DNA of 64,000 nt, taken from NCBI GenBank assembly GCA_048940925.1, contig JBHLOC010000007.1, positions 56,064 to 120,063 of the forward strand, read 5' to 3'. This document shows, piece after piece, positions 13,599-37,073 of the stretch. The position numbers were made by a program, and so were the translations under genes. Below the pieces are notes generated by a model. It was not told the origin of the DNA, ran no database searches, and saw only the letters and a program-made list of their open reading frames with translations. This stretch comes from Promethearchaeota archaeon (GTDB lineage: Archaea; Asgardarchaeota; Lokiarchaeia; Sigyniarchaeales; SOKP01). Each line of letters begins with the position of its first letter. Within the stretch, counting starts at the first letter, position 1.

Positions 13599-16500
13599 AT
13601 GAAGCAAAAAAGAAGAATCTTAACTCTTATAATTTTAGCTCTTATACTTTTTTCTTTTTCAAATATTCAATTCTTCCTTAAATTTTTTCCAAATTATCAT
13701 GATAATAATGAAGATGAGATATCTGAATTAAATTCTGCGAAATATTGGCCAAATTTAAATAGAATACATATAGATGATAGCAATACTTCTTTAAATTGGG
13801 CAACCACTGCTGCTAATAATGATTGGTGTAATGGTTCAGGAACTTGGAGTGATCCTTATATTATCAAAAATGTAATTATAGATGGTCAGGAGAGAGAAAG
13901 TTGCATTTTAATTAAAAATTCAAATGTTTTCTTCATAATTGAAAATTGTACAGTCTACAATACTGGTGATGAGGGTAAATTTTCTGAAGAACCAGGGATT
14001 AAATTAATCAATACTAATAATGGAACTTTTATAAGTAATAACTGTTCTCTAAATCATTATGGGATAAGATTATTCAACAGCGATAATAACACTTTTTTAA
14101 ATAATATGATAACTAAGAATGAATTTAAAGGAATAACACTTGAAGATAGTTCTAATAATACTTTTGCTGGAAATGAGATAAGTAACAATTATCTCGATGG
14201 AATAGTTTTGGAATCAAATAGTGATCATAATAATATTTCTCAGAATAAATTATACAATAACTTTGGAAGCGGACTAAGTTTGATGTCCGGTGATAATAAT
14301 ACAATAAACAATAATGATATTTTTAAGAACAGAGAATATGGCATATTTCTTGAAGCCGGTCGTGAAAATACTATAAAAGAGAATGCAATGAAAAAGTGTG
14401 GAATTGGTATTTCTCCATCTGAAGAAATAAATACAAATATTATCGATACATCAAATACTGTGAATGGTAAAACTTTTTACATATATTTTAATCAGACAGA
14501 TTTAGATAATTCTGATTTTTCTTCCCCTAGACTAGCCGGGCAAATTATACTAATAAAATGTAATGATTCAATAATTTCTAATTTTAATCTTTCTCAAACG
14601 TCAATTGGATTAATCTTATATGAATGCCAAAATAATACAATATCGAATAACCTTGTTAATAATTGTACCAAATCTGGATTCTATCTGAACTTTTGTAACA
14701 ATAATACAATATATAACAATTCAGTAAATTATAATTTTGATGGTATAGAATTATTCGGATGCATTAATACGAGAATTAATAGAAACAACGCAACAAATAA
14801 TAAATGGAATGGGATAAAATTATCTGAAAATTGTGTTTTTAATATAATTCATGGGAATAATGCTTCCAATAATATCGAAACGGGAATATATACTGAATAT
14901 TGTGAAAGTAATAACATCACTAAAAATCTTGTACTTAATAATGAAAGAGCAGGAATAAGAATAAAAGCAAGCCACTTTACTTTAATTCAAAACAATACCG
15001 CAAATAACAATATCAATACTCGTGTCATTAATTTTGGTGTTGGAATTCAAATAGGAGAAACAGGTTCTTTTGAACAAAGTAATAACAATACAATTACTGA
15101 AAATATAATGAATAATAATAGTTATGTGGGATTGTTTCTAGATGGAAAAAATAACACAATAACAAAAAACAATTTTACTAATTGTGGTCTAATTTTTGGT
15201 TACTATTCAGATATAACTACTATTGATGACTTTAGTTCCCAAACAATTGATAGATCTAATCTAGTAAACAATAAAATTCTTTACTATTATTTTAATTCTA
15301 CCCACTTAAGCAATGATAACTTTTCTAATGCGGGACAAGTGGTCTTGGTCAGATGTAATGATTCCCTAATTTCTAATTTGCAATTAGAACGAGCTAGCCT
15401 ACCAATATCTTCATACTATTGTGATAACATTACTATTTCCAATAACAATCTTACAGAAAATACTTTTAGTGGAATTTATTTAATTCAAAATAGTAATTCT
15501 AATATCTCAAATAATCAATTAAATACAAATATAAATATTTATTTAGAGGTTTCAACTGTGATCACATTTGGATTTGGTATATATTTAGAAGACTGTTATA
15601 ATTGTAATTTTACATTCAATAATGCTACTAATAATGGATATGGAATCTATTTAAAGGATAGCAATAATATTCTCATAAAAAATAACACTTTTTATGATAA
15701 TAATATCGCAGGGATTAGTATTTTAGCAAATCAACCAGGAAAATGCGATGATATTAATTTTTCAGCTAATTACATGAGAAATTGTGGTGTATATATTTAT
15801 GAATCCCCATACTTACAAAACTCTAAATTATATATTGATAAAACAAATTTAATTAATAATAGACCACTTCATTATTTTTCTAACACTAATAGCTTAAAAT
15901 CGAGTGATTTTATAAATCCTGGGCAGATTATACTATTAAATTGTAATAATTCAGAAATTTCAAATCTTAGTTTTTCTAGATGTACAATAGGTATTTCTTT
16001 ATTTTATTGCCACAATGCATCTGTTTATAACATTAATTCCTCAAAAAATTCAATGTATGGATTTGTGTTGGTTCTAAGTAATAATTGTCATCTGTTCAAC
16101 AATACAGCATCTCAGAATCTTTTTGGAATCTTCAATGTGTTTTGTTTTAATAATACTTATACGGGAAATACCTTGAAGAATAGTAAATCGATATTTATAG
16201 ATAATTTATATTTCGGAGGAGGCATTTGTAGTATGTGGTACAATGATAATCTAAATATTGTCCGAAATACTTTTGAAAACTGCTCTAATGGAATTATGAT
16301 ATATTTAGAAGGACCTGGGATTTTTTTTAATGTCTCTGATAATTTATTAGATAATAATATTCAGTATGGTATTTGGTTAAAAAATTGCCATAATAGCACA
16401 TTTACAAAAAACAAAATTCAAAATAATGGAATTGGAATATATTTAGACTTCTACTCTGATAATAGTAATAATAGTTTTTTGTACAATAACTTAAATGGGA

Positions 16501-18392
16501 ATGATTTAAATGCCCAAGATAATGGAGATAATAATAAATGGGACGATGGATTTGCAGGAAATTATTGGGATGATTACACAGGTATAGATGCAAATATTGA
16601 TGCGATAGGTGATAATTCTTACACAATTCGTGGTTTAGCTTATAATAAAGATAATTATCCGTTAATTTATCGAACTGATATTGATACTGACGGAGATGGT
16701 CTAATAAATTACGAAGAATATGTTTTAGGAAAAGATCAATACCGCACTAATGTTACAAATCCCGACACAGATTATGATGAATTATCTGATTATTGGGAAT
16801 GGAAAAATTCTACTAATCCATGGAATCCAGACACTGATTTTGACAGAATGCCTGATGGGTGGGAAGTATTCAATTTTTTAAATCCTATATCCGGAGATGA
16901 TAATATCACTGATGCTGATAATGATTTTCTCTTGAATGTATATGAATTCAAGAATGGCACTGATCCAAATAATGAAGATACTGATGGAGATACATTTTTG
17001 GATGGTATTGAGGCTGGTGCTTTACCAGAATATAACTGGTGGACAGATCCCTTGAATAAGTGGTGGTATCCAATGCCTAATCTAGTGGCTGTAGGTTTTC
17101 AAATAACTTCTGCTGAATTAGGAAAACCATTTGTTTTAAACATAACGATAAAAAACGATGGAATCTGGGATGTAGAAAATATAACAATCATCATTTGGGT
17201 TGAGTATTTGGGACAAGCTTTATATAACAATTCTGAAAATCCTATTCCATTATTAGAAGTGGATGAGGTGTATCAAGATTTTATTCAAAGTGACATACTG
17301 CCAAGTGAGAAAATTCCTCAAGGAGGGCGTTTGGTTATGGAATTAAGATTAGATCCTGAAAATGTAATTAATGAAACTTACAGTAATAAAGATGGATCTG
17401 CTCGACACAGAAGTGAAGATGATAATATCCTAGAAACAATCTTGAATATTGGTGGACAATTACCTGGTGGTGGTTTTGATATCTTTTGGATTATTTTAAT
17501 TGTAATTGGAGTAATAGCTCTAGCGGGAATTACAAGTACTTATATGGTTTTAAGACCAAGAATGAAAAGAAGAGCTGCTTTTAAAAGACAAATTGAAACA
17601 GCGAAAACGGATATTAATAACTTTGAAATCAATATGCGTAGTTTTATTAAAACAAAATTAATAGACACTTACGAATCCAGATGGTGGGATGAAGGAGTCC
17701 CTGAATACATTAGAACCCCCATTGGAACCAAAATAAAAACCTTGAAACCAAAGAAACCAGGAGTGCCAATCGATAGAATGGATTTGTTAGATTTCACACA
17801 TTATAGTGCGATAATCACACAAAGAGATAATTGGGAACATACATTCTCAAAAATCTTTCCCGAAAGAGGCGTGGTTGACACAAATTTCGAAAACCTAAGA
17901 ATTATTAAAAGAGATCTTGCTGAAGGTACAATTACACGTGAACGGTTATCCAGTTATTCATTATTTCTACATAATATAACAAATTTCTTTAGAAAAGGAT
18001 TCAATGTGTTTTTAAGCTACTCCACACTCGATACAGAATACTTTAATGTTAAGGAAATCGCTAAACGTTTAGAATCATTTCCAGAAATTGATAGAGTCTT
18101 TTTCTGGGAAGAAGATAGTGGCGAAAACATCGTCACCTATATGGAAAGGACTTTAGCAATGACAAAGGCATTTGTATTCTTTTGCACGGAACATTCTGTT
18201 AGATCTAAGGCAGTAGAAGATGAGTGGCAAGCAGCTTTTCAGATGAGGAAAAAAGGACTGCTAAAAATAGTACCTGTATATGAAAATGAAAATATAATTC
18301 CCTTCTTATTGATGCCCTTATTAAATGTCAAATACACAAAAGATGATTTTGATGGTTTTATTCAAAAGCTTTATGAGGAAATTCTTAGATAA
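13599..18392 (+). CDS. TIR receptor 1: signal/TM, long beta-helix ectodomain, TSP3-like Ca-binding repeats, CARDB-like domain, TM, Swt1-like HEPN, TIR
   Basis: Asn-rich beta-helix repeats; DTDGDG/DTDxD repeats; TM IFWIILIVIGVIALAGITSTYMVL followed by RPRMKRR; WWDEGVP...LDFTHY...NWEHTFSKIF (HEPN-like); C-terminal VFLSYS...FVFFCTEHSVRSKAVEDEWQAA...IVPVY (TIR). Confidence 0.85.
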   Translation: MKQKRRILTLIILALILFSFSNIQFFLKFFPNYHDNNEDEISELNSAKYWPNLNRIHIDDSNTSLNWATTAANNDWCNGSGTWSDPYIIKNVIIDGQERESCILIKNSNVFFIIENCTVYNTGDEGKFSEEPGIKLINTNNGTFISNNCSLNHYGIRLFNSDNNTFLNNMITKNEFKGITLEDSSNNTFAGNEISNNYLDGIVLESNSDHNNISQNKLYNNFGSGLSLMSGDNNTINNNDIFKNREYGIFLEAGRENTIKENAMKKCGIGISPSEEINTNIIDTSNTVNGKTFYIYFNQTDLDNSDFSSPRLAGQIILIKCNDSIISNFNLSQTSIGLILYECQNNTISNNLVNNCTKSGFYLNFCNNNTIYNNSVNYNFDGIELFGCINTRINRNNATNNKWNGIKLSENCVFNIIHGNNASNNIETGIYTEYCESNNITKNLVLNNERAGIRIKASHFTLIQNNTANNNINTRVINFGVGIQIGETGSFEQSNNNTITENIMNNNSYVGLFLDGKNNTITKNNFTNCGLIFGYYSDITTIDDFSSQTIDRSNLVNNKILYYYFNSTHLSNDNFSNAGQVVLVRCNDSLISNLQLERASLPISSYYCDNITISNNNLTENTFSGIYLIQNSNSNISNNQLNTNINIYLEVSTVITFGFGIYLEDCYNCNFTFNNATNNGYGIYLKDSNNILIKNNTFYDNNIAGISILANQPGKCDDINFSANYMRNCGVYIYESPYLQNSKLYIDKTNLINNRPLHYFSNTNSLKSSDFINPGQIILLNCNNSEISNLSFSRCTIGISLFYCHNASVYNINSSKNSMYGFVLVLSNNCHLFNNTASQNLFGIFNVFCFNNTYTGNTLKNSKSIFIDNLYFGGGICSMWYNDNLNIVRNTFENCSNGIMIYLEGPGIFFNVSDNLLDNNIQYGIWLKNCHNSTFTKNKIQNNGIGIYLDFYSDNSNNSFLYNNLNGNDLNAQDNGDNNKWDDGFAGNYWDDYTGIDANIDAIGDNSYTIRGLAYNKDNYPLIYRTDIDTDGDGLINYEEYVLGKDQYRTNVTNPDTDYDELSDYWEWKNSTNPWNPDTDFDRMPDGWEVFNFLNPISGDDNITDADNDFLLNVYEFKNGTDPNNEDTDGDTFLDGIEAGALPEYNWWTDPLNKWWYPMPNLVAVGFQITSAELGKPFVLNITIKNDGIWDVENITIIIWVEYLGQALYNNSENPIPLLEVDEVYQDFIQSDILPSEKIPQGGRLVMELRLDPENVINETYSNKDGSARHRSEDDNILETILNIGGQLPGGGFDIFWIILIVIGVIALAGITSTYMVLRPRMKRRAAFKRQIETAKTDINNFEINMRSFIKTKLIDTYESRWWDEGVPEYIRTPIGTKIKTLKPKKPGVPIDRMDLLDFTHYSAIITQRDNWEHTFSKIFPERGVVDTNFENLRIIKRDLAEGTITRERLSSYSLFLHNITNFFRKGFNVFLSYSTLDTEYFNVKEIAKRLESFPEIDRVFFWEEDSGENIVTYMERTLAMTKAFVFFCTEHSVRSKAVEDEWQAAFQMRKKGLLKIVPVYENENIIPFLLMPLLNVKYTKDDFDGFIQKLYEEILR
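14452..15980 (+). repeat. Three copies of a beta-helix junction module within TIR receptor 1
   Basis: NTVNGKTFYIYFN...AGQIILIKCNDSIISN / NLVNNKILYYYFN...AGQVVLVRCNDSLISN / NLINNRPLHYFSN...PGQIILLNCNNSEISN, indicating internal triplication. Confidence 0.75.
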
Positions 18393-18501: not shown

Positions 18502-20082
18502 ATGGTTGATAGAGTAGTACCATATCTAATTAATATGGATGAAGTAACTCCTGTCCGCTCTCAAGCATCATTATTAAATGAATTAGCAATGGCGTTAATT
18601 GAGTGTATATCAATTAATAGTAAAAAACTAAAAAAATTAGGCAAAATATCTAAAATTTCAACAGCATTTTGGCCAGTTCGTTTAGTCCCGTTGAGTGATA
18701 CGAGAGCATGCGTATTTAGTTATCTATTAAACAAACAAGAGAAGTTAAGTGTTGGTAAATGGGCGCAGATGCCTCCAAAACCAGAAAACATTATTAAGGG
18801 AGCAGATCCAGAATCATTTTTAAGCTCATTACAAAATTATAATAATACTTATTTAAAAAAAAGCAAAAATTTTAAACGTGGAACTGTAATACAAGAAGCT
18901 TTATTTAATGCTAGCGAAGTTGAGTATTTTCAGAATTTTTTCTTAAACCAATATAGTTTAGGTTCTCATTCAACACCTTATTTTCTATTAGAAGGTGGAC
19001 CTATCGCAAAAAGTGTAAATCAAACCAAAATTGTTCCAGAAATTATTGAGTTTGTCTCTCAAAAAGATATTGAAATACTTGATAAAATTGAAGACGGTAT
19101 TATGAAATTATGCGAACGGTGGGTTCAAAAAGGCTCTAAGGAGGTTGATAAAATAAGAGATACTAAAGTTGATACAAGTGAAGAAGAAAAGAATTTATCA
19201 ATTCTAAATAAAGAATTGCAAGCAGAAAAAGAAGAAGAAATAGAAAAAACACCAGAAGAACTAGTCAAAATAGGAAAGTACAAGGTAAATGATAAAACTG
19301 GAGAATTAAATAATGATCTTAGCTCACTTAAAAATAGTGTTGATGGCATGAAAAATGCTATTAATCAAAGAGATCTTTTTTTAGTAGAAGAAGGATTAAA
19401 AGAAATTCAACTAAAGTATCAGGAATTAGGAAATTCAATCAGTCGCTACAATACTGAAATTACACAATTAAGAAAAAATATCCAACGTGAGATTTCTGAC
19501 ACTGAAAGAGCAAAACAACAAAGAGTCCGAGAATTAGAACGAAAAAAAGCTGAAGTGGAAAAACAAATAGAAGCTAAACATTCTGGTTTAAGCAGAGATT
19601 TAACTTCCGCAGAAGATATCATAGCAGCTATAAAAATTGAAAAACAATCTTGTTTAGATAATCTTGAATCTGTAAAAGATATAGAAATGACGAATGTTCA
19701 GAATTTCTTTAATAGCTATTCACTTGCATTAAAGACACAAAATGTTATAGTTGGTATCCCGATTTATATCTTCTATTTCGTAGATCCTAATACAAATAGG
19801 ACTACAGAAAGATCTCCTGTACTTCCTATATTGATTGAAAAAGGGAAAACCGTAAGCACTAAAGTTAATGCAAGTTTCAGGCAGAAATTACGAAATCTAA
19901 TGAATAAGGATAATGCAATGATAGATTTGGTTGAAACTCAAGGCGATAAAAATAATATAATGGAAATAAAAAATCTAGACACTCGACTTGAAGATGCAAT
20001 TAATGATTTGCGAATTCGAAAGATATTGAAAAAAGGTCAAGCTGAAACCGCTAAAGATTTAATTGCTAATCTTATCTGGTAA
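18502..20082 (+). CDS. Hypothetical cytoplasmic protein with long central coiled coil
   Basis: Heptad-rich E/K/Q/L region (about aa 190-400) flanked by globular termini (FWPVRLVP; VGIPIYIFYF); no TM and no Walker motifs. Confidence 0.8.
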   Translation: MVDRVVPYLINMDEVTPVRSQASLLNELAMALIECISINSKKLKKLGKISKISTAFWPVRLVPLSDTRACVFSYLLNKQEKLSVGKWAQMPPKPENIIKGADPESFLSSLQNYNNTYLKKSKNFKRGTVIQEALFNASEVEYFQNFFLNQYSLGSHSTPYFLLEGGPIAKSVNQTKIVPEIIEFVSQKDIEILDKIEDGIMKLCERWVQKGSKEVDKIRDTKVDTSEEEKNLSILNKELQAEKEEEIEKTPEELVKIGKYKVNDKTGELNNDLSSLKNSVDGMKNAINQRDLFLVEEGLKEIQLKYQELGNSISRYNTEITQLRKNIQREISDTERAKQQRVRELERKKAEVEKQIEAKHSGLSRDLTSAEDIIAAIKIEKQSCLDNLESVKDIEMTNVQNFFNSYSLALKTQNVIVGIPIYIFYFVDPNTNRTTERSPVLPILIEKGKTVSTKVNASFRQKLRNLMNKDNAMIDLVETQGDKNNIMEIKNLDTRLEDAINDLRIRKILKKGQAETAKDLIANLIW

Positions 20083-23277: not shown

Positions 23278-24798
23278 ATGAAAAATATGAATATTTCAAA
23301 ATTTTTAATAATAAGAATTGTTTATGGTGTTATTTTGGCATTGTTTATAACACTTGCTTTTTTTCCATACTTTTCTGTAACTTATACATACGGACCACAT
23401 TCTTATACAGAATATTCTTATGGATTTTTTGAATTGCTTTTTGGAGGTTGGGTTGGAATAGGGCTTATTGGTGCATCAGTTATTCTTTTAAATTCACAAA
23501 AAATAATCAAACCAATACTCTTTGGGATTTCTGGATCTGTCATAATATTGATTAATTTGATTATCCGCACTCGCATTCTCGGGATGACTCTCGAATTAAG
23601 TTATTATGTGAGTATTGTATTACTGATTAGTCTATTCGCAATAAACATATTATCATTTGTATATAGAGAAACAAAAGTTGTAGTAAAATTTATTCCAAAA
23701 AAGAAAAGAATTAAGATCGAGGAACCAGAAGAATTAGAAATTGATTGGGAAAAGAGAAAAGAAGAAGAGGCAAAACAAATTTTGAAAGAACTTCAGCTTA
23801 AAATGATAGATGCTGATAATCTAATTAAAGAACAAAAGATAAAAGTAGCACTAAAAAGTTTAAATAAAATTAAAGCAATAGCTAAAAATCATAACTTAAT
23901 TGAGCTTTTGGACGAATCAAAATCAAAAATCATTCAATGTAAAGAATTGGAATCAGAAATAAAGAGGAGAAAAAAACAACTTAAAGTTAAAGGTAAACTT
24001 GAGAAAAGAATATCAAATGTTGAAGTTTTAATCGAAGATTATGAATTAACTAAAGCATTGGAAAATTTAATCGAAATTAAGCAGATAGCAAAAACTAATG
24101 AAATTTCTGATTTATTAGGAATTATTGAAGACAGAATCAGATATTGTAAGAGTTTAGAAACAGATACAGTTAATAGAATCAAAAATACAATTTTAAACTA
24201 TGCAACAAAGCTTACTCGCCTTGAACTTGTAGATATCAGTGAAAAAAGTGGAATAAAAGATGAAAATTTAATTGAGAATGTGATTCTTGGAATGATTAGG
24301 AATAAAGAAATCAATGCTGAATATTTTTCAAGTTCTAAATCAATCGCATTTTATAAAGAGGAAAAAGAAGCAGTTCCTAAGCCAAAACTAAAGGAAGAAA
24401 AAGTTCTTAAAGTTTTCTTAAGTTATTCTACGTTAGATGCTGATCATTTCAGGATCTCTGATATTGTTAATAATTTAGAAGAATTCTCAGAAATTGGAAA
24501 GGTTTCATATTGGCAAGCAGATAGTAAACAAAACATTGTTGAATTTATGGAGGAAACTCTTAAAGATTGCGATGTTTTCGTGCTGTTTTGCTCTGAAAAT
24601 TCAAGAGGATCAAAAGCAGTAAAAGATGAGTGGCAAGCTGCCTTTCAAATGAGGAAAAAGGGATTACTGAAGATTATTCCCGTCTATGAAGAAGAAGAGC
24701 TTATTCCCGTCTTATTATGGCAGATGCTTAACGTTAAATTTACAAAGGATAATTTTGATGGATTTATCCAAAGGCTTTATGAAGAAATTTTAAGATAA
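23278..24798 (+). CDS. TIR receptor 2: about 4 N-terminal TM helices, helical repeats, PCI-like winged helix, TIR
   Basis: Hydrophobic aa 1-128; two copies of a helical unit (ALKSLNKIKAIAK / ALENLIEIKQIAK); RLELVDISEKSGI...MIRNKEINAEYFSSSKSIAF; TIR VFLSYS...SKAVKDEWQAA. Confidence 0.85.
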   Translation: MKNMNISKFLIIRIVYGVILALFITLAFFPYFSVTYTYGPHSYTEYSYGFFELLFGGWVGIGLIGASVILLNSQKIIKPILFGISGSVIILINLIIRTRILGMTLELSYYVSIVLLISLFAINILSFVYRETKVVVKFIPKKKRIKIEEPEELEIDWEKRKEEEAKQILKELQLKMIDADNLIKEQKIKVALKSLNKIKAIAKNHNLIELLDESKSKIIQCKELESEIKRRKKQLKVKGKLEKRISNVEVLIEDYELTKALENLIEIKQIAKTNEISDLLGIIEDRIRYCKSLETDTVNRIKNTILNYATKLTRLELVDISEKSGIKDENLIENVILGMIRNKEINAEYFSSSKSIAFYKEEKEAVPKPKLKEEKVLKVFLSYSTLDADHFRISDIVNNLEEFSEIGKVSYWQADSKQNIVEFMEETLKDCDVFVLFCSENSRGSKAVKDEWQAAFQMRKKGLLKIIPVYEEEELIPVLLWQMLNVKFTKDNFDGFIQRLYEEILR

Positions 24799-27975: not shown

Positions 27976-30936
27976 ATGATAAAAAGAAATAGATATTGTC
28001 TTGTTTTACTTTTTCTAATAGTTATATTTAATATTATTCCATTGATTAGATTCAATTTCAATGAACCTAATAAAAAAATTATTATTACTGATGAGGATTT
28101 TCATGCTAAAATCAATTCTGTAAAAACATCAAATCCAATAGTTTTATCGGACGGATTTGCGGGTATAGAATGGAATGATGATATTAGTCAAACTCCTTCA
28201 ATCGTCATAGATACTAATGGCACTATTCATGCAGTCTGGTCAGACTTTACTAATGGTCCGTGGGGTAATGATCCTGAGATAATGTATGCAAATTATTCCT
28301 CTTCACTTGGATTATCTTATGCTACAGTCATTTCTGATGGATATAATGGTGATTATTGGAATTCGGGTGGTAGCTATTTTCCAGATATTGCTATCGATAA
28401 TTATGGAAATATTCATGTTGTTTGGTATGATGATACTGATGGTCAATGGGGCACTGATGAAGAAATAATGTATGTGAATTACACATCTTCCGCTGGTTGG
28501 TCAAATGCCACTGTAATTTCGGATTTATATGGTGGAAGTGTATGGAATAATCGTTATAGCAGGGATCCTTCAATTGCTATAGATAATATTGGAGGAATTC
28601 ATGTTGTTTGGAATGATGATACTGATGGCGAATGGGGAACTGATACAGAAATAATGTATGTAAATTATACATCTTCCACTGGCTGGTCAAATGCTTGTGT
28701 CATTTCGGATTTATATGGCCAAATTAAATGGAATAATGATTTTAGTGAGAATCCTTCAGTTGCTGCTGATAATATTGGAGGAGTTCATGTAGTTTGGCGA
28801 GATCTCACTGATGGTCTATGGGGCACTGATCCTGAAATAATGTATGTAAATTATACCTCTGATTCTGGTTGGTCAAACATTACTGTAATTTCGGATGGAT
28901 TTGGGGATAAATATTGGAATAATGAGTGGAGTGACTATCCTTCAATTACAACAGATAATTTTGGAGGAATTCATGTTGCTTGGCAGGATGATACTGATGG
29001 TGAATGGGGAACTGATACCGAAATAATGTATTGTAATTATACATCCTCAAATGGATGGTCTAATGCTTCGGTTATCTCAGATTTATATGGAGGAATTGAA
29101 TGGAATGATGGTTATAGTGGTACTCCTTCAATTGCTACTGACAATATTGGAATAGTCCATGTAGCTTGGGTTGATGGAACTGCTGGTCCATGGGGAAGTG
29201 ATGGGGAGATAATGTATTGTAATTATACATCTTCAAATGGATGGTCTAATGCTACAGTAGTTTCTGACGGATTTGATGGGACATATTGGGATACAGGTGC
29301 GAGTGGTAATCCTTCAATTGCTATAGATAATGCTAGAACTATTCATATAGTATGGCAAGATGATTTTGCATTATGGTGGGGTCCTGATTCTGATATAGTA
29401 TATATTTTCATTGATAATATCGTTCCAGTTATTTCAATAAAAAATCCTACTCCAAACCAATTTTTCGGAATAGCTCCTCCAAATTTTAGTATAGAAATTA
29501 GTGAAGATCGTTTGGATAGAATTTGGTATATTTTGAATGATGATATAAAGACTTTTATATCTAAAAGCAATGGTACAATAAATCAAAATGTATGGGATAG
29601 AATTTATAATGGAACTATAACTATCATTTTTTATGCAAATGATACTGTAGGAAATTTAGGTTCTGCAAATGTTAAAATAAGAAAAGATTTAATTTCTCCT
29701 ATAATAATAATTAACAATATTGAAACGAATCAACGGTTTGGTAAAGAATCTCCATCTTATAGCTTATCTATAAATGAACCAAACTTAAACATATCATGGT
29801 ATTCAATATATAATGGTACTCATTGGTCTCAAGAGTTTATTTTTACTGAACTAGAAGGAAAAATTAATCAGTTATTATGGGATTCATTACCTAAAGGAAA
29901 TGTAACGGTTAGGTTTTATGCTAATGATTTAGCGGGGAATATTGGATTTGAAGAGATCTCAATTATTAAAAGCTATAAACAAAATAAATTTCCTATTGAA
30001 TTAATTGCTTTAATTTCAGTTATTGCTATTGGGTCCACAATAGTATTAAGTGGTGTAATAGTACGAAAGAAGAAGATTTTTACTAAGATATCAAAAAAAG
30101 AAGGAAAGATTGAAGCTAAAGAGTTAATCAAAGATAAAAATTATCTCCAAAAAAGAAGGTTGTTAATAGATGATTTAATAAAAAGAAATGAATTTAAAGA
30201 GGCGATTAAAAATTTAAACCAGATTAAGGAAATAGCCCAACGTTATGGATTAAAATATCTATTGACGAATACCGAAGAAAAAATAGATGAATGTAAAAAA
30301 TTAGAATTGGAAACTATTAAATCCATTAAAGAGATAATAAAAAATTTAGGTAGGAAATATATTCGCGTACAAGTTGTAGAGATTAGCAAAAAAAGTGGCA
30401 TTAAAGATGAAAAAATGATAGAAGATATAATTCATGAAATGATTCAGAAGAAAGAAATTCTTGCCAAATATTATTCTAGTTCTAAAACAATCACATTTGG
30501 CCTAATGGTAATCCCTGTATTGAAGCCAAAGTTAAAAAGGAAAAATGATGTATTTTTAAGTTATTCAACCTTAGATTCAGAATACTTTCAGATACCCAAA
30601 ATTGTAAAAAGTTTAGAAGAATATCCTGAAATCGGCAGGGTTATGTTTTGGGAAGCGGATAGTCAAGCAAATATCGTAGAATATATGGAAAAAACTTTGA
30701 GAATTACGAATGTTTTTGTATTGTTATGTTCTGAAAATTCTTTCAAGTCTGAATCGGTAAAAGGTGAATGGCAAGCAGCTTATCAGATGGATAAAGAAGG
30801 CCTTTTGAGAATTATCCCTGTTTATGAAGTTCAAGACCACATTCCCCGGTTATTATGGCCTTTACCAAGTGTCAAATATATAAAAGATGATTTTGATATA
30901 TTTATTCAAAATCTTTATAAAACAATTTTAGAATAA
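27976..30936 (+). CDS. TIR receptor 4: 7-repeat beta-propeller ectodomain, two Ig-like repeats, TM, PCI-like winged helix, TIR
   Basis: Seven 62-aa repeats; TM LIALISVIAIGSTIVLSGVIV + RKKK; TIR VFLSYS...SESVKGEWQAA. Confidence 0.88.
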   Translation: MIKRNRYCLVLLFLIVIFNIIPLIRFNFNEPNKKIIITDEDFHAKINSVKTSNPIVLSDGFAGIEWNDDISQTPSIVIDTNGTIHAVWSDFTNGPWGNDPEIMYANYSSSLGLSYATVISDGYNGDYWNSGGSYFPDIAIDNYGNIHVVWYDDTDGQWGTDEEIMYVNYTSSAGWSNATVISDLYGGSVWNNRYSRDPSIAIDNIGGIHVVWNDDTDGEWGTDTEIMYVNYTSSTGWSNACVISDLYGQIKWNNDFSENPSVAADNIGGVHVVWRDLTDGLWGTDPEIMYVNYTSDSGWSNITVISDGFGDKYWNNEWSDYPSITTDNFGGIHVAWQDDTDGEWGTDTEIMYCNYTSSNGWSNASVISDLYGGIEWNDGYSGTPSIATDNIGIVHVAWVDGTAGPWGSDGEIMYCNYTSSNGWSNATVVSDGFDGTYWDTGASGNPSIAIDNARTIHIVWQDDFALWWGPDSDIVYIFIDNIVPVISIKNPTPNQFFGIAPPNFSIEISEDRLDRIWYILNDDIKTFISKSNGTINQNVWDRIYNGTITIIFYANDTVGNLGSANVKIRKDLISPIIIINNIETNQRFGKESPSYSLSINEPNLNISWYSIYNGTHWSQEFIFTELEGKINQLLWDSLPKGNVTVRFYANDLAGNIGFEEISIIKSYKQNKFPIELIALISVIAIGSTIVLSGVIVRKKKIFTKISKKEGKIEAKELIKDKNYLQKRRLLIDDLIKRNEFKEAIKNLNQIKEIAQRYGLKYLLTNTEEKIDECKKLELETIKSIKEIIKNLGRKYIRVQVVEISKKSGIKDEKMIEDIIHEMIQKKEILAKYYSSSKTITFGLMVIPVLKPKLKRKNDVFLSYSTLDSEYFQIPKIVKSLEEYPEIGRVMFWEADSQANIVEYMEKTLRITNVFVLLCSENSFKSESVKGEWQAAYQMDKEGLLRIIPVYEVQDHIPRLLWPLPSVKYIKDDFDIFIQNLYKTILE
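28141..29415 (+). repeat. Seven tandem 186-bp coding repeats (propeller blades)
   Basis: Consensus VISDxxGxxxWNxxxSxxPSIAxDNxGxIHVVWxDxTDGxWGxDxEIMYxNYTSSxGWSNAT, also visible at DNA level (gatactgatgg..aatgggg; gaaataatgtat). Confidence 0.9.
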
Positions 30937-31077: not shown

Positions 31078-34017
31078 ATGAAATTAAGTATTAAAATAGA
31101 GAAAATGAAAAGAATCACCCTTATTTTATTATCTATGATTGTCATATTTAGCATTGTTTCATTAATCAAATTTGACACAAAAGAACCTATACACATAAAA
31201 AATGGAAATGATGATGATTTTAATATTGAATTAAGCTCTGTAAAATATACAAATGGAACAATTATTTCTGATGGGTTCAATGATGTGTATTGGAATGATC
31301 AACTAAGTAGTTCTCCTTTAATTGCTATTGATATCTATGGAAACCTCCATGTTGTGTGGCATGATGATACTGATGGTCCATGGGGTGTTGATTCTGAAAT
31401 AATGTATGCAAAATATTCAATATCAGCGGGTTGGTCTAATGTTACTGTAATTTCGGATTTGTATGGCTGGAATGATGGTGATAGTGTAAAGCCTTCAATT
31501 GCTACGGATTCAAATGGTAATGTTCATGTAGCATGGGAAGATGATACTGATGGTCCATGGGGTATTGACTCTGAAATAATGTATGCTAATTATTCTTCAT
31601 CTGTTGGGTGGTCTAACCCTGTTGTAATTTCAGATTTATATGGCGGAGTTGAATGGAATGATGGGAATAGTGGGAATTCTTCGATTGCAATAGATAATGA
31701 TGGAGATATTTATGTAGTCTGGGATGATAACACAGATACAATATGGGGTCCCGACTCAGAAATAATGTTAGCAAAATTTTCACCTTCAATTGGTTGGTCT
31801 AACGCTAGTGTGATCTCAGATAATTTTGGGGGTCAATCTTGGAATGATGGCTGGAGTAGAGATCCTTCAATTGCTATCGACAACGATAAAAACATTCATG
31901 TTGTATGGCAAGATGATACTGACCATGGTTCGTGGGGTACTGATACTGAAATTATGTATAGAAAATATGTTTATTCATGGTCTATGTGGACTAATGATAC
32001 TGTAATATCGGATACTTGGTGGGTTCAAAGTTGGAATGATGGTTATAGTGGAAATCCTTCAATTGCAATAGGTGAGTTTGGATTCCCACATATTGTATGG
32101 ATTGATGATACTGATGGCGAATGGGGCACTGATATTGAAATAATGTATATAGCGCAACCCTATGATAATGCTACTGTAATCTCGGATGGATTTGAAAGTG
32201 TATATTGGAATGATGATTTCAGTGGTTATCCTTCAATTACTACCGATATTGATGGAAACGTTCATGTAGTATGGTTCGATAATACTGATGGCTCGTGGGG
32301 GATTGATTCTGAAATTATGTATGTAAAATATTCTTCCTTAAGTGGGTGGTCTAATGCCACTGTAATTTCGGATGGATTTGGAGGCATATATTGGAATGAT
32401 GATAATAGTAAGAATCCTTCTATTATAACAGATCAGAATGGAAATATCCATGTAGTGTGGGAAGATGATACAAATGGAAAATGGGGTATGGATACCGAGA
32501 TAATGTATATCTTTACCGATTATCCCGCTCCAGTTATTACTATAAATAATCCAAGGTCAAATGAGATTTTTAGATCTCTAGCACCAAGCTTTAATATTAC
32601 TATTAAAGAGTCAAATTTAGACACGTTTTGGTATACCCTTGATGGAGGTATAACAAATATTACGATCACAGAATTCATAGGAACGATTAATCAAATAGAG
32701 TGGGACAAGATTGGAAGATCTACTGTGGAATTAACTTTTTATGCGATTGATGTTGTGGGAAATATTGGTTTTCAATCAGTTATTATTGAAAAAGCTATTG
32801 ATTATTGGCAAGTAAATCCAATTATTATTGATGACAAGGGAACTGGAGATTTCACTTGGTCTGAAGTAGCAATGCAGGGATGGTGTACCGGTTCTGGAAC
32901 TTCAACAGATCCTTATATTATTGAGTTTTTAAAAATTGATGGGCAGAATGGCTATAATTGTATTGAAATTAGGCATTCTAAAGTTTTTTTCGTAATTGGA
33001 AAATGTCTTTTGTTTAATTCTGGAACAGGATCAAGATTTGCAGGATTTAATTTATTCAATGTTTCTAATGGAATTTTGACTGATAATAATTGTTCTTATA
33101 ACAATGGATACGGCACAATTATAATGAATTGCTCATATATCACTATAACAGAAAATGAAGTGAATAATAATGAAATTGGTGGGATATATTTAGAATCTAG
33201 CCGTTTTATCAACATTTCAAATAATAAAGATACTATAAGTTACAATGGATTATATGGAATCTATTTAATATTTAGTAATGATAATACGATTACAGACAAC
33301 ACTATAAACTACAATCAGAATGGTATTTACTTGTATAGATCTAATGATAATACTATAATAGGAAATAAACTTATTGGGAATAAAGTACCAATTACAGAAA
33401 TTGAATGTAGTGGAAATATTATTAAAGGCAATAGCATTGGTATAAAGAAATTTCCCATTGAATTTTTAATAATAATTGGTACTCTAATAGGTATTACAAT
33501 AATATCTAGTGCTATTATTTTATTGAGGAAAAAGATCTTTAAGAAATTATTTCCTAAAAAGGGTGGAATAATCAAAGAGAAAGGCAAAAGAATTTCTGTA
33601 ACTAAAATTGGAGAAAAGCATAAGCTTAATGTGTTTCTAAGCTATTCTACTATAGATTCTGGATATTTTCAGATACCAAAAGTAGTACAACATTTAGAAA
33701 AGTATCCTGAAATTGACAAAGTTTCAAGCTGGGAAGCTGATAGTAAGGAAAATATAGTAGAATTTATGGGAAAAACTTTAAAGGACACTGATGTATTTGT
33801 GTTATTTTGTTCTGAAAATTCTGTTAATTCTGAATCTGTTAAAGGTGAATGGCAAGCAGCTTATCAATTGAATAAAGCTGGTCTTTTAAAAATAATTCCT
33901 GTATACGAAATTCAAGAACATATTCCTCGATTGTTATGGCATATATTAAATGTAAAGTATTCAAAAAAAGATTTCAATGGATTTATTGAAAATCTTTATC
34001 ATGAAATATTAAGATAA
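31078..34017 (+). CDS. TIR receptor 5: 7-repeat beta-propeller, Ig-like domain, beta-helix, TM, TIR (no winged helix)
   Basis: Seven repeats of the same family as receptor 4; WCTGSGTSTDPYIIE cap then beta-helix; TM FLIIIGTLIGITIISSAIILL + RKK; TIR VFLSYS...SESVKGEWQAA. The real start may be the ATG at 31105. Confidence 0.88.
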   Translation: MKLSIKIEKMKRITLILLSMIVIFSIVSLIKFDTKEPIHIKNGNDDDFNIELSSVKYTNGTIISDGFNDVYWNDQLSSSPLIAIDIYGNLHVVWHDDTDGPWGVDSEIMYAKYSISAGWSNVTVISDLYGWNDGDSVKPSIATDSNGNVHVAWEDDTDGPWGIDSEIMYANYSSSVGWSNPVVISDLYGGVEWNDGNSGNSSIAIDNDGDIYVVWDDNTDTIWGPDSEIMLAKFSPSIGWSNASVISDNFGGQSWNDGWSRDPSIAIDNDKNIHVVWQDDTDHGSWGTDTEIMYRKYVYSWSMWTNDTVISDTWWVQSWNDGYSGNPSIAIGEFGFPHIVWIDDTDGEWGTDIEIMYIAQPYDNATVISDGFESVYWNDDFSGYPSITTDIDGNVHVVWFDNTDGSWGIDSEIMYVKYSSLSGWSNATVISDGFGGIYWNDDNSKNPSIITDQNGNIHVVWEDDTNGKWGMDTEIMYIFTDYPAPVITINNPRSNEIFRSLAPSFNITIKESNLDTFWYTLDGGITNITITEFIGTINQIEWDKIGRSTVELTFYAIDVVGNIGFQSVIIEKAIDYWQVNPIIIDDKGTGDFTWSEVAMQGWCTGSGTSTDPYIIEFLKIDGQNGYNCIEIRHSKVFFVIGKCLLFNSGTGSRFAGFNLFNVSNGILTDNNCSYNNGYGTIIMNCSYITITENEVNNNEIGGIYLESSRFINISNNKDTISYNGLYGIYLIFSNDNTITDNTINYNQNGIYLYRSNDNTIIGNKLIGNKVPITEIECSGNIIKGNSIGIKKFPIEFLIIIGTLIGITIISSAIILLRKKIFKKLFPKKGGIIKEKGKRISVTKIGEKHKLNVFLSYSTIDSGYFQIPKVVQHLEKYPEIDKVSSWEADSKENIVEFMGKTLKDTDVFVLFCSENSVNSESVKGEWQAAYQLNKAGLLKIIPVYEIQEHIPRLLWHILNVKYSKKDFNGFIENLYHEILR
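31261..32520 (+). repeat. Seven tandem ~180-bp coding repeats (propeller blades)
   Basis: Same consensus as 28141-29415, with small indels in units 2, 4 and 5. Confidence 0.9.
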
Positions 34018-34027
34018 ATATATTTTT

Positions 34028-34195: not shown

Positions 34196-34484
34196 TTTTT
34201 TATCACCTATCCTTTATAATTTAAATTTAATAAGAGAAATAGATAACAAAAATACTTCCTTTATATGATATAATCTTTTTCAATCTACTGTTTTCAATAA
34301 TTAGGTAGAGCAGTGGCAAATCTTGTGAAATATTAACAACTTTTCTTTACTGACAAGGATTATGAAATAAGGTCAAATTTTAATATAGAAGTCTTTTAAA
34401 TTGTCATTTAAGATAAATATAAATAATAGAGTATATCAATAATAATAAGACGAATTCAAGAATAGTCAAAATAAAAAATGATAT

Positions 34485-37073
34485 ATGAATTATGGTGGAA
34501 TTATGGAAGTAGAACAACGTAAGATTTATGAAGAACAAATTAATAAGTATAAGGAATTACGTCCGCTTTATAAACAGTATAGTAAGATTTTGAAAAAAAT
34601 ATTGGATAATTTAGTTTGTGGTTGTTCGTCTGAATTTATTATAGAACGAAGAGTCAAATCTATTTCTGGTTTTGCAAATAAAATATTCAATCCCGAAGAA
34701 ACATATACTAATCCTATTTTGGAAATAAAAGATTTATGTGGGATTCGGATTATTCTTCCTAATATTAGTGAAATGAATGCTGTTTGTAACGTTATTCGTG
34801 ATAATTTTATTGTTGATATCACTGAAAGTAGTGAGATAATTGGACCAAGTACAGGTATGGATATTTTAGAGCATTATCGCACATATATAGTCCAGCTTAT
34901 CCCAACATTAAGTCTTTATGAGAGATTAAATTTGAAAATTCCTGATGAAATTTTTAATTTAAAAGCAGAAATACAAGTTCGCACCTATCTTAGTCAGGGT
35001 TGGGCAGCAAATCAAGATCAAATTTTCAAAAAGTATGAATTTAAAGTACCAAGAGCGTATGAACAGGAATTTAGTCGCGTAAAATCATTATTAACGATTG
35101 AAGATGATGCTTTAGATAATATTATGAAAAAAATGCAGGATTACAAATCAATATATGGTGCTTATATGTCAAATGAAAAAATAAAATCAGAGATTGAAAG
35201 ATTAGAGATGGTTTATGAAGCAGATAAAAGTAATTATGAAATAGGTCATAGAATAGCAAAATTAGCAATGACAGTTAACAATATGGATAAATCTATAGAA
35301 ATTTTAAATGAAATCATTAATAATCCTGAATTTAAACAAGCTCCTGCTATAGAAATTGCTAATATATTGCGAGATTTTGGAACTTCACATCATATAAAAT
35401 ATAAAAAAGAGCCACGGGGTGCAAATTTCTTAAAAGGACAATCTTACTTAAAAGAAGCAGTTCAGAAAAATCCTCTTGATTATGATGCGTGGTCATCTTT
35501 AGGGGGGACCTATAAAGACCAAAAAAACCTTGATAAGGCATTAGAATGCTATAAACAAGCATTAAAAGTCAATCCTGGTGATCCTTATCCATTAGGGAAT
35601 TATCTAGTTTTAAATATTCAACAAACAGGAAATTTATTACATATTGAAAAAAACCATGAAATGATTAAAAAAGCGATTGAAAAAAGGTTAAGACAAGTAG
35701 AAGTTATGGTAGACATGCCTTGGGCTTATTTTGATTTAGGGTTGTTTAATTTATTTTTAGGAAACCTACATTTAGCTCTAGATAATTATTTGAAAGGAAT
35801 TCGATTCAGCCCGAATATTTGGATGATTGAAACTACATTAAATACCTTAAATAATCTTAATATTGTTCAAAATAAGTTAGAAGGCATAAAAACCGTAAAA
35901 CATTTATTACTGCTAGGAATATATTTTCATCCGAATCTTGAAGAAAAAACTGAAAAACTGTTAGAGGAAACTATTCTTAAATTAGATGCTGACTTTGACC
36001 AAAAAGAAAAAGATTTTGGTGATTCTATAGTTATTATAGCTGGAGGAACAGATGAGCGAATAGAAAGAAGCCTGGATGCTATAAGAAATAATCTAATTGA
36101 GTCCTTTAGCGATTTTGGATGCACAATTATCTCAGGAGGCACAAAATCTGGTATTAGTAAGATAGTAGGAGATATACAAGAAAAATACCCAAGTAATATT
36201 AAAACGGTTGGATATATCCCAAGTCATATTCCCGCTCATGTAGAATTGGACAAAAGGTATTCCGCAATCCATATTACAGAAGGAAAAGATTTTAGCATCT
36301 TGGAACCTTTGCATTATTGGTATGATTTAATGAAATCTGGAATTGAACCGAGTAGAATTAAACTTATTGGAATCAATGGAGGAAATATTGCGGCTTTTGA
36401 GTTTCATGTTGCGATTGTATTTGGAGCGCAAGTGGGTATAATGAAAAATAGTGGTAGAGCATCTTCAGAATTAATTAACGATCCTAGCTGGGAAGAACCA
36501 ACGGGACCTGAATATGGCTATAAACCAAAGAAATTGATTAAAGTTTTGAAAAATTCAACAGAAGATATTTATAACTTTTTGACAAAGCCATTTATAATTG
36601 ATCCTGATATAGATAATATTCAAAAGTTACTTATACAATATCGAGAAAGCGGAGCAGATATGTATGAATTAAATTTTACCTCAGAAGAAATCGATAATAC
36701 TATATTTTCTGGATTTTTAACGGCCTTGGATCTTATCGCAAGCCAAGAATTAAAGGTAGGCGAAATTGTATCAATAAAGTTCAGTGAAGGTCATTTGACT
36801 GGAGGATTCTTTACTAATAAGGAATTTAAAATAGTATTTTTACTAAATGAGACACCCTCACCATCGTTAGAAGAAAAAATTACTGATTATATAAAAGAGG
36901 TAGAAAGTAAATTAGGTGAACATTTTCATACTCTACAACAAAGTTGTCGGGGTTATCTTGGGGGTAAAGAGATGAATATGATTCTTTCAAATATCTTTGG
37001 TTCAGAAATTTTAAAATTTGTAGACACAAAATTCGAGCAAGAATCTTCAGAACTAGTTCAAGTGCCTGAATAA
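34485..37073 (+). CDS. Multidomain protein: RelA/SpoT-like synthetase, TPR, SLOG-like domain, longin-like domain
   Basis: RRVKSISGFANK, DLCGIRI and EIQVRT (RSH synthetase motifs); DAWSSLGGTYKDQKNLDKALECYKQALKVNP (TPR); IIAGG, ISGGTKSG, GINGGNIAAFE and SGRASSEL (SLOG-like); SG..MY...FSGFLTAL (Asgard longin-like). Confidence 0.75.
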   Translation: MNYGGIMEVEQRKIYEEQINKYKELRPLYKQYSKILKKILDNLVCGCSSEFIIERRVKSISGFANKIFNPEETYTNPILEIKDLCGIRIILPNISEMNAVCNVIRDNFIVDITESSEIIGPSTGMDILEHYRTYIVQLIPTLSLYERLNLKIPDEIFNLKAEIQVRTYLSQGWAANQDQIFKKYEFKVPRAYEQEFSRVKSLLTIEDDALDNIMKKMQDYKSIYGAYMSNEKIKSEIERLEMVYEADKSNYEIGHRIAKLAMTVNNMDKSIEILNEIINNPEFKQAPAIEIANILRDFGTSHHIKYKKEPRGANFLKGQSYLKEAVQKNPLDYDAWSSLGGTYKDQKNLDKALECYKQALKVNPGDPYPLGNYLVLNIQQTGNLLHIEKNHEMIKKAIEKRLRQVEVMVDMPWAYFDLGLFNLFLGNLHLALDNYLKGIRFSPNIWMIETTLNTLNNLNIVQNKLEGIKTVKHLLLLGIYFHPNLEEKTEKLLEETILKLDADFDQKEKDFGDSIVIIAGGTDERIERSLDAIRNNLIESFSDFGCTIISGGTKSGISKIVGDIQEKYPSNIKTVGYIPSHIPAHVELDKRYSAIHITEGKDFSILEPLHYWYDLMKSGIEPSRIKLIGINGGNIAAFEFHVAIVFGAQVGIMKNSGRASSELINDPSWEEPTGPEYGYKPKKLIKVLKNSTEDIYNFLTKPFIIDPDIDNIQKLLIQYRESGADMYELNFTSEEIDNTIFSGFLTALDLIASQELKVGEIVSIKFSEGHLTGGFFTNKEFKIVFLLNETPSPSLEEKITDYIKEVESKLGEHFHTLQQSCRGYLGGKEMNMILSNIFGSEILKFVDTKFEQESSELVQVPE

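Follow-up and report, generated by a model that had tools for sequence, protein, structure and literature searches.

TIR membrane proteins and an RSH-SLOG protein in one gene block

We analysed a stretch of 64,000 nucleotides (the window) from a Promethearchaeota archaeon of the Lokiarchaeia (assembly GCA_048940925.1, contig JBHLOC010000007.1, positions 56,064 to 120,063 of the forward strand), and focused on a block of genes at 13599-37073 in which TIR proteins are followed by a protein that joins a RelA/SpoT-like (RSH) domain to TPR, SLOG and longin-like domains. The block holds eight open reading frames (ORFs) on the + strand, all of them where a preliminary description of this DNA had placed them, and five of the eight carry a C-terminal Pfam TIR_2 (PF13676) match above the curated cut-off, with scores of 39-56 bits (cut-off 28 bits). 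The whole genome has eight TIR_2 genes. That the five + strand TIR proteins of the block have their TIR domain behind transmembrane (TM) helices had been proposed before, and is borne out by Pfam together with the hydropathy scan on which the membrane topology given here is based.

Four of these proteins (1597, 995, 986 and 979 amino acids, aa) have an N-terminal signal or anchor, an ectodomain of 650-1280 aa and one TM helix, and as the helix is followed by a Lys/Arg-rich stretch the TIR domain is placed on the cytoplasmic side. According to Pfam the four ectodomains consist of NosD/right-handed beta-helix, Big_13 Ig-like and SBBP-like propeller repeats of about 62 aa. Receptor 1 (13599-18392, +, 1597 aa; TIR_2 E 1.9e-13) has a NosD/beta-helix ectodomain, a TM helix at residues 1293-1311, a juxtamembrane segment with a weak HEPN_Swt1 match (E 0.005, below cut-off), and a TIR domain at 1470-1591 with the conserved Glu at E1542. 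Receptor 3 (24825-27812, +, 995 aa; E 1e-9) combines a NosD/beta-helix with three Big_13-like repeats, a TM helix at 684-702 and a TIR domain at 869-978 (E940), and its cytosolic segment gave a weak, sub-threshold PCI-like match (E about 0.08-0.09) that serves as a lead. Propeller-like repeats of about 62 aa and Ig-like repeats make up the ectodomain of receptor 4 (27976-30936, +, 986 aa; E 2e-12; TM 677-695, TIR 859-958, E931), and receptor 5 (31078-34017, +, 979 aa; E 2e-12) has SBBP propeller-like repeats, an Ig-like repeat and a NosD/beta-helix, then a TM helix at 797-815, a short linker and a TIR domain at 852-962 (E924). TIR protein 2 (23278-24798, +, 506 aa; E 7e-15) is built from four TM helices (4TM), no ectodomain, a helical, winged-helix-like cytosolic segment and a TIR domain at 379-500 (E451), and is the only one of the five that also passes the Pfam cut-off of ThsB_TIR. 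Receptors 3-5 look like a tandem expansion placed between the gene of this 4TM-TIR protein and the RSH-SLOG gene.

The five TIR domains all keep the F-x-S-Y-S, D and S-x-x-V-x-x-E motifs, and the Glu that had been pointed out as catalytic is present at its position in each. It was found to be invariant, as the last residue of S-x-x-(V/C)-x-x-E, in 13 of 13 aligned TIR domains from this and related genomes, and HMMER aligned it with SEWVKKE of the bacterial TIR-TPR structure 9m0n and with SEWCHYEL of TLR6. TIR domains with the catalytic Glu cleave NAD+, and in Thoeris the SLOG domain of ThsA reads the signal (3'cADPR) of the ThsB TIR. We infer from these motifs that the receptor TIRs are enzymes (NADase or cyclase). 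The best PDB profile match was the bacterial TIR-TPR protein, followed by animal receptor TIRs (Hydra TRR-2, TLR6, TLR2, TLR1 and TLR10; E 1e-6 to 5e-4).

By Pfam and the TM scan, the 842-aa surface protein encoded at 20519-23047 (+) has a signal, an SBP_bac_5 solute-binding (SBP) domain on a stalk of Big_13 Ig-like repeats, then a C-terminal TM anchor and a short Lys-rich tail, and is without a TIR domain. This tail-less protein and the 506-aa 4TM-TIR protein are possibly the halves of a split receptor, in which the SBP protein would be the ligand-binding half; Rosetta-stone support comes from a paralogue elsewhere in the genome, in which SBP_bac_5, a TM helix and TIR are all part of a single protein of 1225 aa (L044:7120-10797, on contig G000:C55).

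The neighbour of the gene for this SBP_bac_5-TM-TIR fusion encodes an LRR-PCI protein without TIR. The two remaining TIR genes of the genome encode a 1144-aa protein with Peripla_BP_6/ANF_receptor and beta-helix regions, a TM helix and TIR (G000:C59, L043:1085-4519), and a soluble LRR-PCI-TIR protein of 477 aa (G000:C10, L045:6526-7959), the sole case in which PCI passes its cut-off. A C-terminal motif, LLNVK(Y/F)xKxDFxxFIxxLYxEIxR, is common to all eight TIR proteins of the genome.

The last gene of the block (34485-37073, +) encodes a soluble protein of 862 aa. The RelA/SpoT-like, TPR, SLOG-like and longin-like domains called in it earlier were all recovered by Pfam and by comparison of AlphaFold models with the PDB. 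The RSH domain (residues 1-235; 34485-35189, +) has a Pfam RelA_SpoT match at residues 56-175 (E 5e-9), and its model (pLDDT 84.3) matched RelQ (5dec, E 5e-9), RelP and CapRel (7ztb, 1.2e-7) in Foldseek. The ATP-side motifs RxKxxxS, DxxGxR and ExQxRT are present (R56, K58, D83, G86, R88, E162, Q164, R166, T167). The TPR region (about residues 236-502; 35190-35990, +) was recognised by TPR_1 and related families, with a match at 315-370, and a TPR-S match was below the cut-off in the window protein (E 4.8e-4) and above it in Lokiarchaeial paralogues. An NCBIfam scan gave YjbM and TPR matches only, far below cut-off, and neither a TIR nor a death-fold adaptor domain was among the Pfam matches of the protein.

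Residues 503-704 (35991-36596, +) are modelled as a SLOG fold of the LSDAT/TRPM clade, including the GGxxxxxxE motif, in agreement with the SLOG-like call made before for 36027-36570. As a PDB sequence search with the SLOG-longin profile was nearly empty (a single match, nvTRPM2, at E 0.48), a fold search was needed. In the model of residues 490-862 (pLDDT 87.6) the SLOG part matched 1rcu (Z 19.1), MHR1/2 of TRPM2 (Z 15-16; 7aov, Z 15.2) and the ThsA SLOG domain with 3'cADPR (7uxs, Z 11.2). All top 30 Foldseek matches of the SLOG model were TRPM channels, the best being TRPM2 (8sr8 and 8sre, E ~1e-7), and several of the best-matching TRPM2 structures had been solved with ADP-ribose. Residues G520, GGT 551-553, G556, Y577, P579, W612, D614, G629, GG 632-633 and E639 are invariant in 35 family members, down to 22% identity, and most homologues carry a precomputed PF18171 match.

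The C-terminal residues 707-844 (36603-37016, +) adopt in the model a longin/roadblock-like fold, which by structure alignment resembled TRAPP (7b6d_C, Z 10.4), AP sigma (Z 9.5), Roadblock3 of Prometheoarchaeum (9jue, Z 9.3) and MglB (Z 8.9); such a predicted fold is by itself no demonstration of GTPase regulation. A longin-like domain resembling this one (E 1e-5 to 1e-9) also ends the cytosolic tail of a family of proteins of ~750-790 aa with a signal, an ectodomain of ~500 aa and one TM helix, represented in this genome by G000:C11 (L041:1814-4081) and G000:C52 (L042:3065-5380, - strand). These ecto-TM-longin proteins have no Pfam matches and occur in most genomes of the Lokiarchaeial family, and may be partners of the RSH-SLOG protein's longin tail.

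The animal receptor TIRs among the profile matches, and the winged-helix/PCI-like and longin modules, which are interaction domains, would also fit TIR domains that act as protein-protein adaptors in the manner of TLR-MyD88, and that recruit the RSH-SLOG-longin protein or other partners with no diffusible nucleotide involved. We consider this very improbable, as the Glu, F-x-S-x-S and D motifs of enzymatic TIRs and the nucleotide loops of the SLOG domain are invariant, the putative reader lacks TIR and death-fold adaptor domains, and the NUDIX and SLATT partners of its relatives, described below, indicate a small-molecule signal.

TIR genes beside RSH-SLOG genes in Lokiarchaeia and across phyla

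The link between TIR and SLOG had been proposed from adjacency in a single genome, and was found to be conserved in rearranged contexts both within Lokiarchaeia and across phyla. In the Lokiarchaeial family sample (71 genomes, roughly 256 Mb) full-length RSH-SLOG orthologues with 50-91% identity were found in some genomes only, with a patchy distribution inside one genus. They were flanked by TIR genes wherever enough contig was present, and a TIR gene adjoins the orthologue in G276, G279, G189, G177, G207, G147 and G071, which cover three Lokiarchaeial genera and show varied order, orientation and surroundings. The loci of G276, G279 and G189 are syntenic; in G207 the order is a receptor 1-like TIR gene, the 526-aa core gene described below and the RSH gene, with different genes downstream; a receptor 1-like gene is convergent with the RSH gene in G147; the RSH gene of G071 lies between two TIR genes; and in G177 a TIR gene is adjacent. 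The most conserved neighbour is the gene of the 4TM-TIR protein, which lies directly upstream of the orthologue in G276, G279, G189 and G071.

Shorter RSH-TPR-SLOG forms (~670 aa, 35-41% identity) also have TIR neighbours. Three soluble TPR(MalT-like)-TIR genes stand in a row directly upstream of the short form in G246, and one TIR gene directly upstream in each of G258 and G231, in the latter as the only TIR gene of the genome. An initial assignment of these three loci as lacking TIR was rejected, because tblastn with the window TIRs was too insensitive and the Pfam HMM (hidden Markov model) found divergent TIRs. In G171 the RSH contig carries six of the genome's seven TIR genes, and the cluster there consists of TIR-LRR, LRR-TIR-like, solo TIR and DUF4062-STAND-TPR proteins, one of the RSH-linked proteins matching CAP12-PCTIR_TIR. 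TIR genes were found in 47 of the 71 genomes, including all 13 that have an RSH-SLOG gene.

Two further observations were made on Lokiarchaeial members of the family. The orthologue of G071 (G071:C47, L026) has an in-frame TAG, and the adjacent gene similar to TIR protein 2 matches in two shifted pieces, which may reflect joint decay of both partners or sequencing error. A paralogue of 1060 aa (L124, G306:C475:141-3320) has an RSH synthetase-like domain, TPRs and a SLOG region and ends in an HD_4 domain of the RelA/SpoT hydrolase type, so that synthetase and hydrolase stand on either side of the sensor core.

Beyond the Lokiarchaeia, relatives with 25-40% identity (E down to 1e-130) are homologous over RSH, TPR and SLOG, have a RyR tail in place of the longin domain, and occur as RelA/SpoT-TPR-SLOG-RyR proteins together with NUDIX. 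The family comprises 3,268 representatives of 50%-identity clusters at E <= 1e-30. A TIR_2 domain or the TIR-like DUF4062 was found in seven of seven distant metagenomic contexts of RSH-SLOG relatives, fused to STAND NTPase, protein kinase, LRR, tubulin/FtsZ or FGE-sulfatase domains. A scan of contigs of one genome per species with the RyR-type subset as query gave 76 loci from Chloroflexota, Planctomycetota, Gemmatimonadota, Acidobacteriota, Bacteroidales, Bathyarchaeia, Thermoplasmatota, methanogens and others. In the 32 loci that had 5 kb or more of flanking sequence on each side, a TIR gene detected by iterated HMM was present within 10 kb in 22 and within 5 kb in 20. TIR density was 7.8 per 100 kb at less than 5 kb from the RSH-SLOG gene and 1.9 at 5-10 kb; genome-wide in the Lokiarchaeial family it was ~0.07 per 100 kb (188 TIR matches).

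Neighbour clustering showed, in at least 37 of 75 loci, a NUDIX gene of ~135 aa directly upstream; further recurrent neighbours were a TrkA_N-RyR protein (at least 17 loci), WD40/STAND proteins (24) and SLATT membrane effectors (4). The TPR-S and SLOG core is constant, the N-terminus being RSH or another module (L125, L126, L028:3929-6031) and the C-terminus longin, RyR, HD_4 (L124) or KaiC (L055), a pattern expected of a sensor core with exchangeable effector modules. In L055 (Bathyarchaeia metagenome-assembled genome, JBEKTQ010000026.1) a 1053-aa RelA_SpoT-TPR-LSDAT-RyR-KaiC fusion comes after a NUDIX gene, and a gene for a 1164-aa receptor with beta-propeller, PKD, TM and TIR is convergent with this pair. 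A crude scan across phyla predicted a TM segment in 28 of 48 RSH-linked TIR ORFs, usually in the layout TIR, TM and WD40/propeller region, which is the opposite topology to that of the window receptors.

TIR domains act as effectors in CBASS and Pycsar, and the linked protein of G171 matches CAP12-PCTIR_TIR. Signalling could then run in the reverse direction, with the RSH domain (or SLOG as an enzyme) making the signal and the TIRs acting as NAD+-depleting effectors, as in TIR-SAVED, TIR-STING and Pycsar; the domains of the SLOG/TIR assemblage can work as generators, sensors or effectors. The domain architectures argue for the opposite. The TIR proteins have obvious input domains, namely ectodomains, TPR, LRR, WD40 and STAND, and lack any known domain for sensing nucleotides. 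In the RSH protein TPR-S and SLOG are both predicted to be sensor modules, and an input domain is not evident. Many TIRs per RSH protein also fit many sensors that report to one reader. A reversed pathway is in our judgement quite improbable.

A predicted receptor-driven nucleotide pathway

Judged from sequence, the TIR/SLOG pairing, which was met again in dozens of phyla, is most likely an undescribed Thoeris-like pathway that would here be driven by receptors. For the window we consider it probable that the block encodes a TIR-to-SLOG second-messenger pathway of the Thoeris kind whose sensors are membrane receptors, the chemistry and the ligand being those that we infer as follows. The five paralogous TIR proteins would use their variable ectodomains to sense something at or within the membrane, TIR protein 2 perhaps through the tail-less SBP partner. 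Clustering of the receptors would activate the cytosolic TIR domains, which would convert NAD+ to ADP-ribose (ADPR) or a cyclic ADPR isomer, and the TPR-S/SLOG core of the one cytosolic protein of 862 aa would read this nucleotide. The SLOG domain of that protein belongs to the same clade as MHR1/2 of TRPM2, which binds ADPR. Binding would then switch on the output modules, the RelA/SpoT pyrophosphokinase and/or the longin domain; the RSH output could be directed at a nucleotide, or at tRNA as in toxSAS/CapRel, and the longin output would go through a protein partner. The HD_4 tail of the paralogue, of the alarmone-hydrolase type, fits a pyrophosphorylated nucleotide product, and HD_4 and NUDIX partners together fit such a product or an ADPR-type ligand.

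Several observations weigh against this reading. The gap between the last TIR gene and the RSH-SLOG gene is 467 bp, and the two therefore do not form a tight operon. TIR genes are also carried by 34 of the 58 family genomes that lack an RSH-SLOG gene, including large forms of the size of receptor 1 and of the SBP-TM-TIR protein; the association thus holds from the side of the RSH-SLOG genomes only. In G123, which is 90% complete, an RSH-SLOG gene is present and a TIR_2 match is absent, and in 10 of the 32 well-flanked loci of the wider family there was no TIR within 10 kb. The Pfam LSDAT_prok match of the window protein (residues 515-666, E 2.8e-5) is sub-threshold at 23.9 bits, against a cut-off of 25.4. 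In the RSH domain the acceptor motif GYxSxH has become EHYRTY and the EHxWA motif SQGWAA, and the acceptor loop (residues 113-126) has a model pLDDT of 40-47. R56, G86/R88 and E162/Q164 are lost in 3 of 21 close orthologues and R166 is changed in four more. The locus is surrounded by metabolic genes, and neither mobile genes nor known defence genes were seen nearby. Finally, two paralogous receptors elsewhere in the genome have solute-binding ectodomains (SBP_bac_5, Peripla_BP_6), which suggests, from sequence, small-molecule rather than virus sensing.

The presence of TIR genes in genomes without RSH-SLOG means that the receptors are independent of this reader, and there they must have another output or act alone. 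Together with the 467-bp gap this would also suit a block of independent neighbours, in which the TIR proteins are self-contained NAD+-depleting effectors or sensors, as is established for the TIR-only NADase effectors SARM1 and TIR-APAZ, and in which the RSH-SLOG protein is a separate nucleotide-responsive enzyme that shares accessory islands with them. Such independence seems improbable to us. Across archaeal and bacterial phyla the adjacency outlasts rearrangement, inversion and full replacement of the partner domains of the TIR, in several genomes RSH-SLOG is adjoined by most or all of the TIR genes, and TIR density is fourfold lower at 5-10 kb than at 0-5 kb.

The changes in the acceptor motif and the residue losses among orthologues mean that the working output may be something other than the RSH domain. 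The idea that several sensors feed a SLOG-gated, alarmone-synthetase-like effector was supported as far as coupling and folds are concerned, and was weakened at the effector, where the acceptor motif is degenerate and some orthologues are without catalytic residues. From the sequences, the label 'alarmone-synthetase effector' is uncertain for the longin clade. Distant relatives keep the acceptor motifs as FGYRSVHY and EHAWA.

The same wiring, with a TIR product read by TPR-S/SLOG, could also serve a non-immune purpose as a transmembrane route for environmental or nutritional cues, with a non-lethal alarmone-like messenger or longin-mediated regulation as output and a role like that of histidine kinases or chemoreceptors. 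The two solute-binding paralogues (SBP_bac_5 and Peripla_BP_6/ANF_receptor) make this a serious alternative to immunity, and an SBP_bac_5 surface protein is also present inside the array itself. It is further favoured by the synteny of the locus with lysine-fermentation-type genes (aminotransferase, BKACE, lysine 2,3-aminomutase) without mobile elements seen nearby, by a longin tail that resembles GTPase-regulator platforms and is shared with the ecto-TM-longin family, and by the decay of the canonical RSH toxin motifs. However, the wider family keeps conflict-type company (STAND, WD40, TPR and LRR TIR proteins, NUDIX, SLATT, transposases and recombinases), its distribution is patchy inside one genus, the tandem, domain-shuffled receptor paralogues suggest diversifying sensors, and the RSH domain matches the PADLOC defence candidate PDC-S33. 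RelA-type toxin domains are moreover accepted as conflict effectors. We regard environmental sensing as unlikely though well worth weighing, and a role in immunity or conflict as somewhat more likely.

A broader and rather speculative reading, which we hold to be doubtful, is that of an Asgard transmembrane pathway assembled from components that eukaryotes put to separate use later on, namely TLR-like receptors, of which some have solute-binding ectodomains, an NAD+-derived messenger, a TRPM2-type LSDAT sensor and a longin output. Such a pathway would be non-lethal and would, for example, turn extracellular cues into an alarmone-like response or control of small GTPases rather than abortive infection, and the bacterial TIR-TM-propeller/RSH-SLOG-RyR loci would follow the same principle with opposite topology.

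If the proposed TIR-to-SLOG pathway is real, it would add to TIR-based signalling a new effector class, the RelA/SpoT pyrophosphokinase, and a new reader clade, the LSDAT/TRPM-type SLOG domain with TPR-S, in a family that is very large, with thousands of 50%-identity clusters in bacteria and archaea. It would also offer a clear example from prokaryotes of TIR signalling that begins at membrane receptors with ectodomains, in the closest archaeal relatives of eukaryotes, and the origin of ectodomain-TM-TIR receptors and of ADP-ribose gating in TRPM2 would become directly testable questions. As the fragment models (residues 490-862 and 1-235) are confident and the five Glu residues are defined, the chemistry can be assayed without culturing the organism.

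Related systems and neighbouring genes

The closest comparison is with Type I Thoeris (ThsB TIR with ThsA SIR2-SLOG; 3'cADPR), which the window resembles in having catalytic-Glu TIR genes beside a cytosolic SLOG-enzyme fusion and in the predicted logic of a TIR product acting on SLOG and then on an effector. TIR genes that are genomically coupled to the gene of a putative signal-binding effector, a feature of Thoeris, are present here. In contrast to Type I, the SLOG domain of the window belongs to the LSDAT/TRPM clade and not to the ThsA type, the effector is RelA/SpoT-like instead of SIR2 with TPR-S and longin as extra modules, the TIR proteins are membrane receptors with ectodomains instead of small cytosolic ThsB, and the host is an archaeon. 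The PADLOC models of ThsA and ThsB gave no match to window proteins at E <= 0.01, the only matches being PDC-S33 (to the RSH domain) and PDC-M34B. PADLOC gave no system-level match either, so that none of its models covers the system, and as the preliminary description had supposed, we found no described system of this composition.

In type VII Thoeris the effector domain that responds to cADPR is SLATT. Type III is described as having several TIR proteins together with a SLOG-containing effector, and the type VIII effector ThsI, which responds to canonical cADPR, joins a nucleotide-processing domain to a TPR that, according to a prediction of Aravind and co-workers, senses TIR products (bioRxiv 10.64898/2025.12.03.692087). 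The window is like types III and VIII in having many TIRs and a TPR/SLOG reader, and is set apart from both by their descriptions, which are of bacterial systems with cytosolic TIRs. Among the 29 predicted types, the available main and supplementary text of that preprint (bioRxiv 10.64898/2025.12.03.692087) does not mention a RelA/SpoT, LSDAT or RyR effector. The window locus is outside any of the Thoeris types compared, and is distinguished by receptor-type TIRs in an Asgard archaeon and by a TRPM2-type reader.

The nearest relatives are the NUDIX/RSH-SLOG-RyR proteins, with the same recurrent TIR linkage and a homologous RSH-TPR-SLOG part. They keep all canonical RSH motifs, end in RyR and usually have NUDIX directly upstream. 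In the window protein the acceptor motif is degenerate and the tail is a longin domain; it lacks a NUDIX partner, and its receptors have the opposite topology (ecto-TM-TIR). We found no experimental description of the longin or the RyR form in the literature, and an earlier in-silico mention in Burroughs et al. 2015 (NAR) is possible. Literature on combinations of LSDAT, SLOG, TIR and RelA, and on TIR or Toll-like proteins of Lokiarchaeota, was also searched, and this architecture was not found described. SLOG/LSDAT and TPR-S were reportedly defined in the 2015 NAR paper of Burroughs et al.

With toxSAS (FaRel, CapRel) and the housekeeping RelQ and RelP, residues 1-235 share the fold and the ATP-side catalytic residues. 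The window differs from toxSAS in that an adjacent antitoxin and a pseudo-ZFD sensor are both absent, conservation does not extend to the acceptor loop, and regulation is predicted to come from the fused TPR-S/SLOG and not from a phage protein or an antitoxin. MHR1/2 of TRPM2 (LSDAT, with NUDT9H) gave the best Foldseek matches of the SLOG model, and the relatives pair LSDAT with NUDIX as TRPM2 does. Unlike TRPM2, the window protein has no channel and is only 14-18% identical, and by analogy it may bind ADPR.

The ectodomain-TM-TIR layout of animal Toll-like and IL-1 receptors, proposed before for the whole set, was confirmed for four of the five proteins, which have an ectodomain with Ig-like repeats, a single TM helix and a cytosolic C-terminal TIR, and it does not extend to the 506-aa protein, which is without an ectodomain. 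The ectodomains themselves differ, being beta-helix, propeller, Big_13 and SBP domains and not LRR or IL-1R Ig, and a MyD88-like adaptor gene was not seen in the window. The likeness of the Asgard receptors to Toll-like and IL-1 receptors may be convergent.

With regard to the neighbouring genes, neither a small ORF nor a NUDIX remnant was seen in the 467-bp gap upstream of the RSH-SLOG gene. Downstream of the block, at 37236-42455 (+), lie genes for a class-III aminotransferase, BKACE, a SAM methyltransferase, a 346-aa protein without assignment and a radical SAM enzyme of the lysine-2,3-aminomutase type. This set is lysine-fermentation-type in appearance and is syntenic with the RSH-SLOG gene in G276, G279, G189 and G255. 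It is followed at 42553-44319 (+), 5.5 kb downstream of the RSH-SLOG gene, by a gene for a 588-aa TPR_MalT-like protein without TIR, which shares 35% identity, across 515 aa, with the sensor portion of the TPR-TIR proteins of G246 and has a Cys-rich, zinc-ribbon-like C-terminal tail. In public runs no RNA data with this stretch were listed, and the stretch is present in contigs of sediment and mangrove metagenomes.

The remaining gene of the block (18502-20082, +) encodes a soluble protein of 526 aa in which a long coiled coil stands between an alpha/beta part at the N-terminus and a C-terminal domain, and which has no match in Pfam, NCBIfam or PADLOC. It was rejected as a component of the system and stands outside it, because it is a core gene, present as a single copy in 62 of the 71 family genomes (55-81% identity) and in relatives mostly located on contigs other than that of the RSH-SLOG gene. 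It accompanies the RSH gene in G276, G195, G207 and G071. In the atlas the protein falls in clusters of archaeal hypothetical proteins, with look-alike clusters in Bathyarchaeota and Thermoproteota, and in several genomes the TIR and RSH genes are inserted around this conserved archaeal gene.

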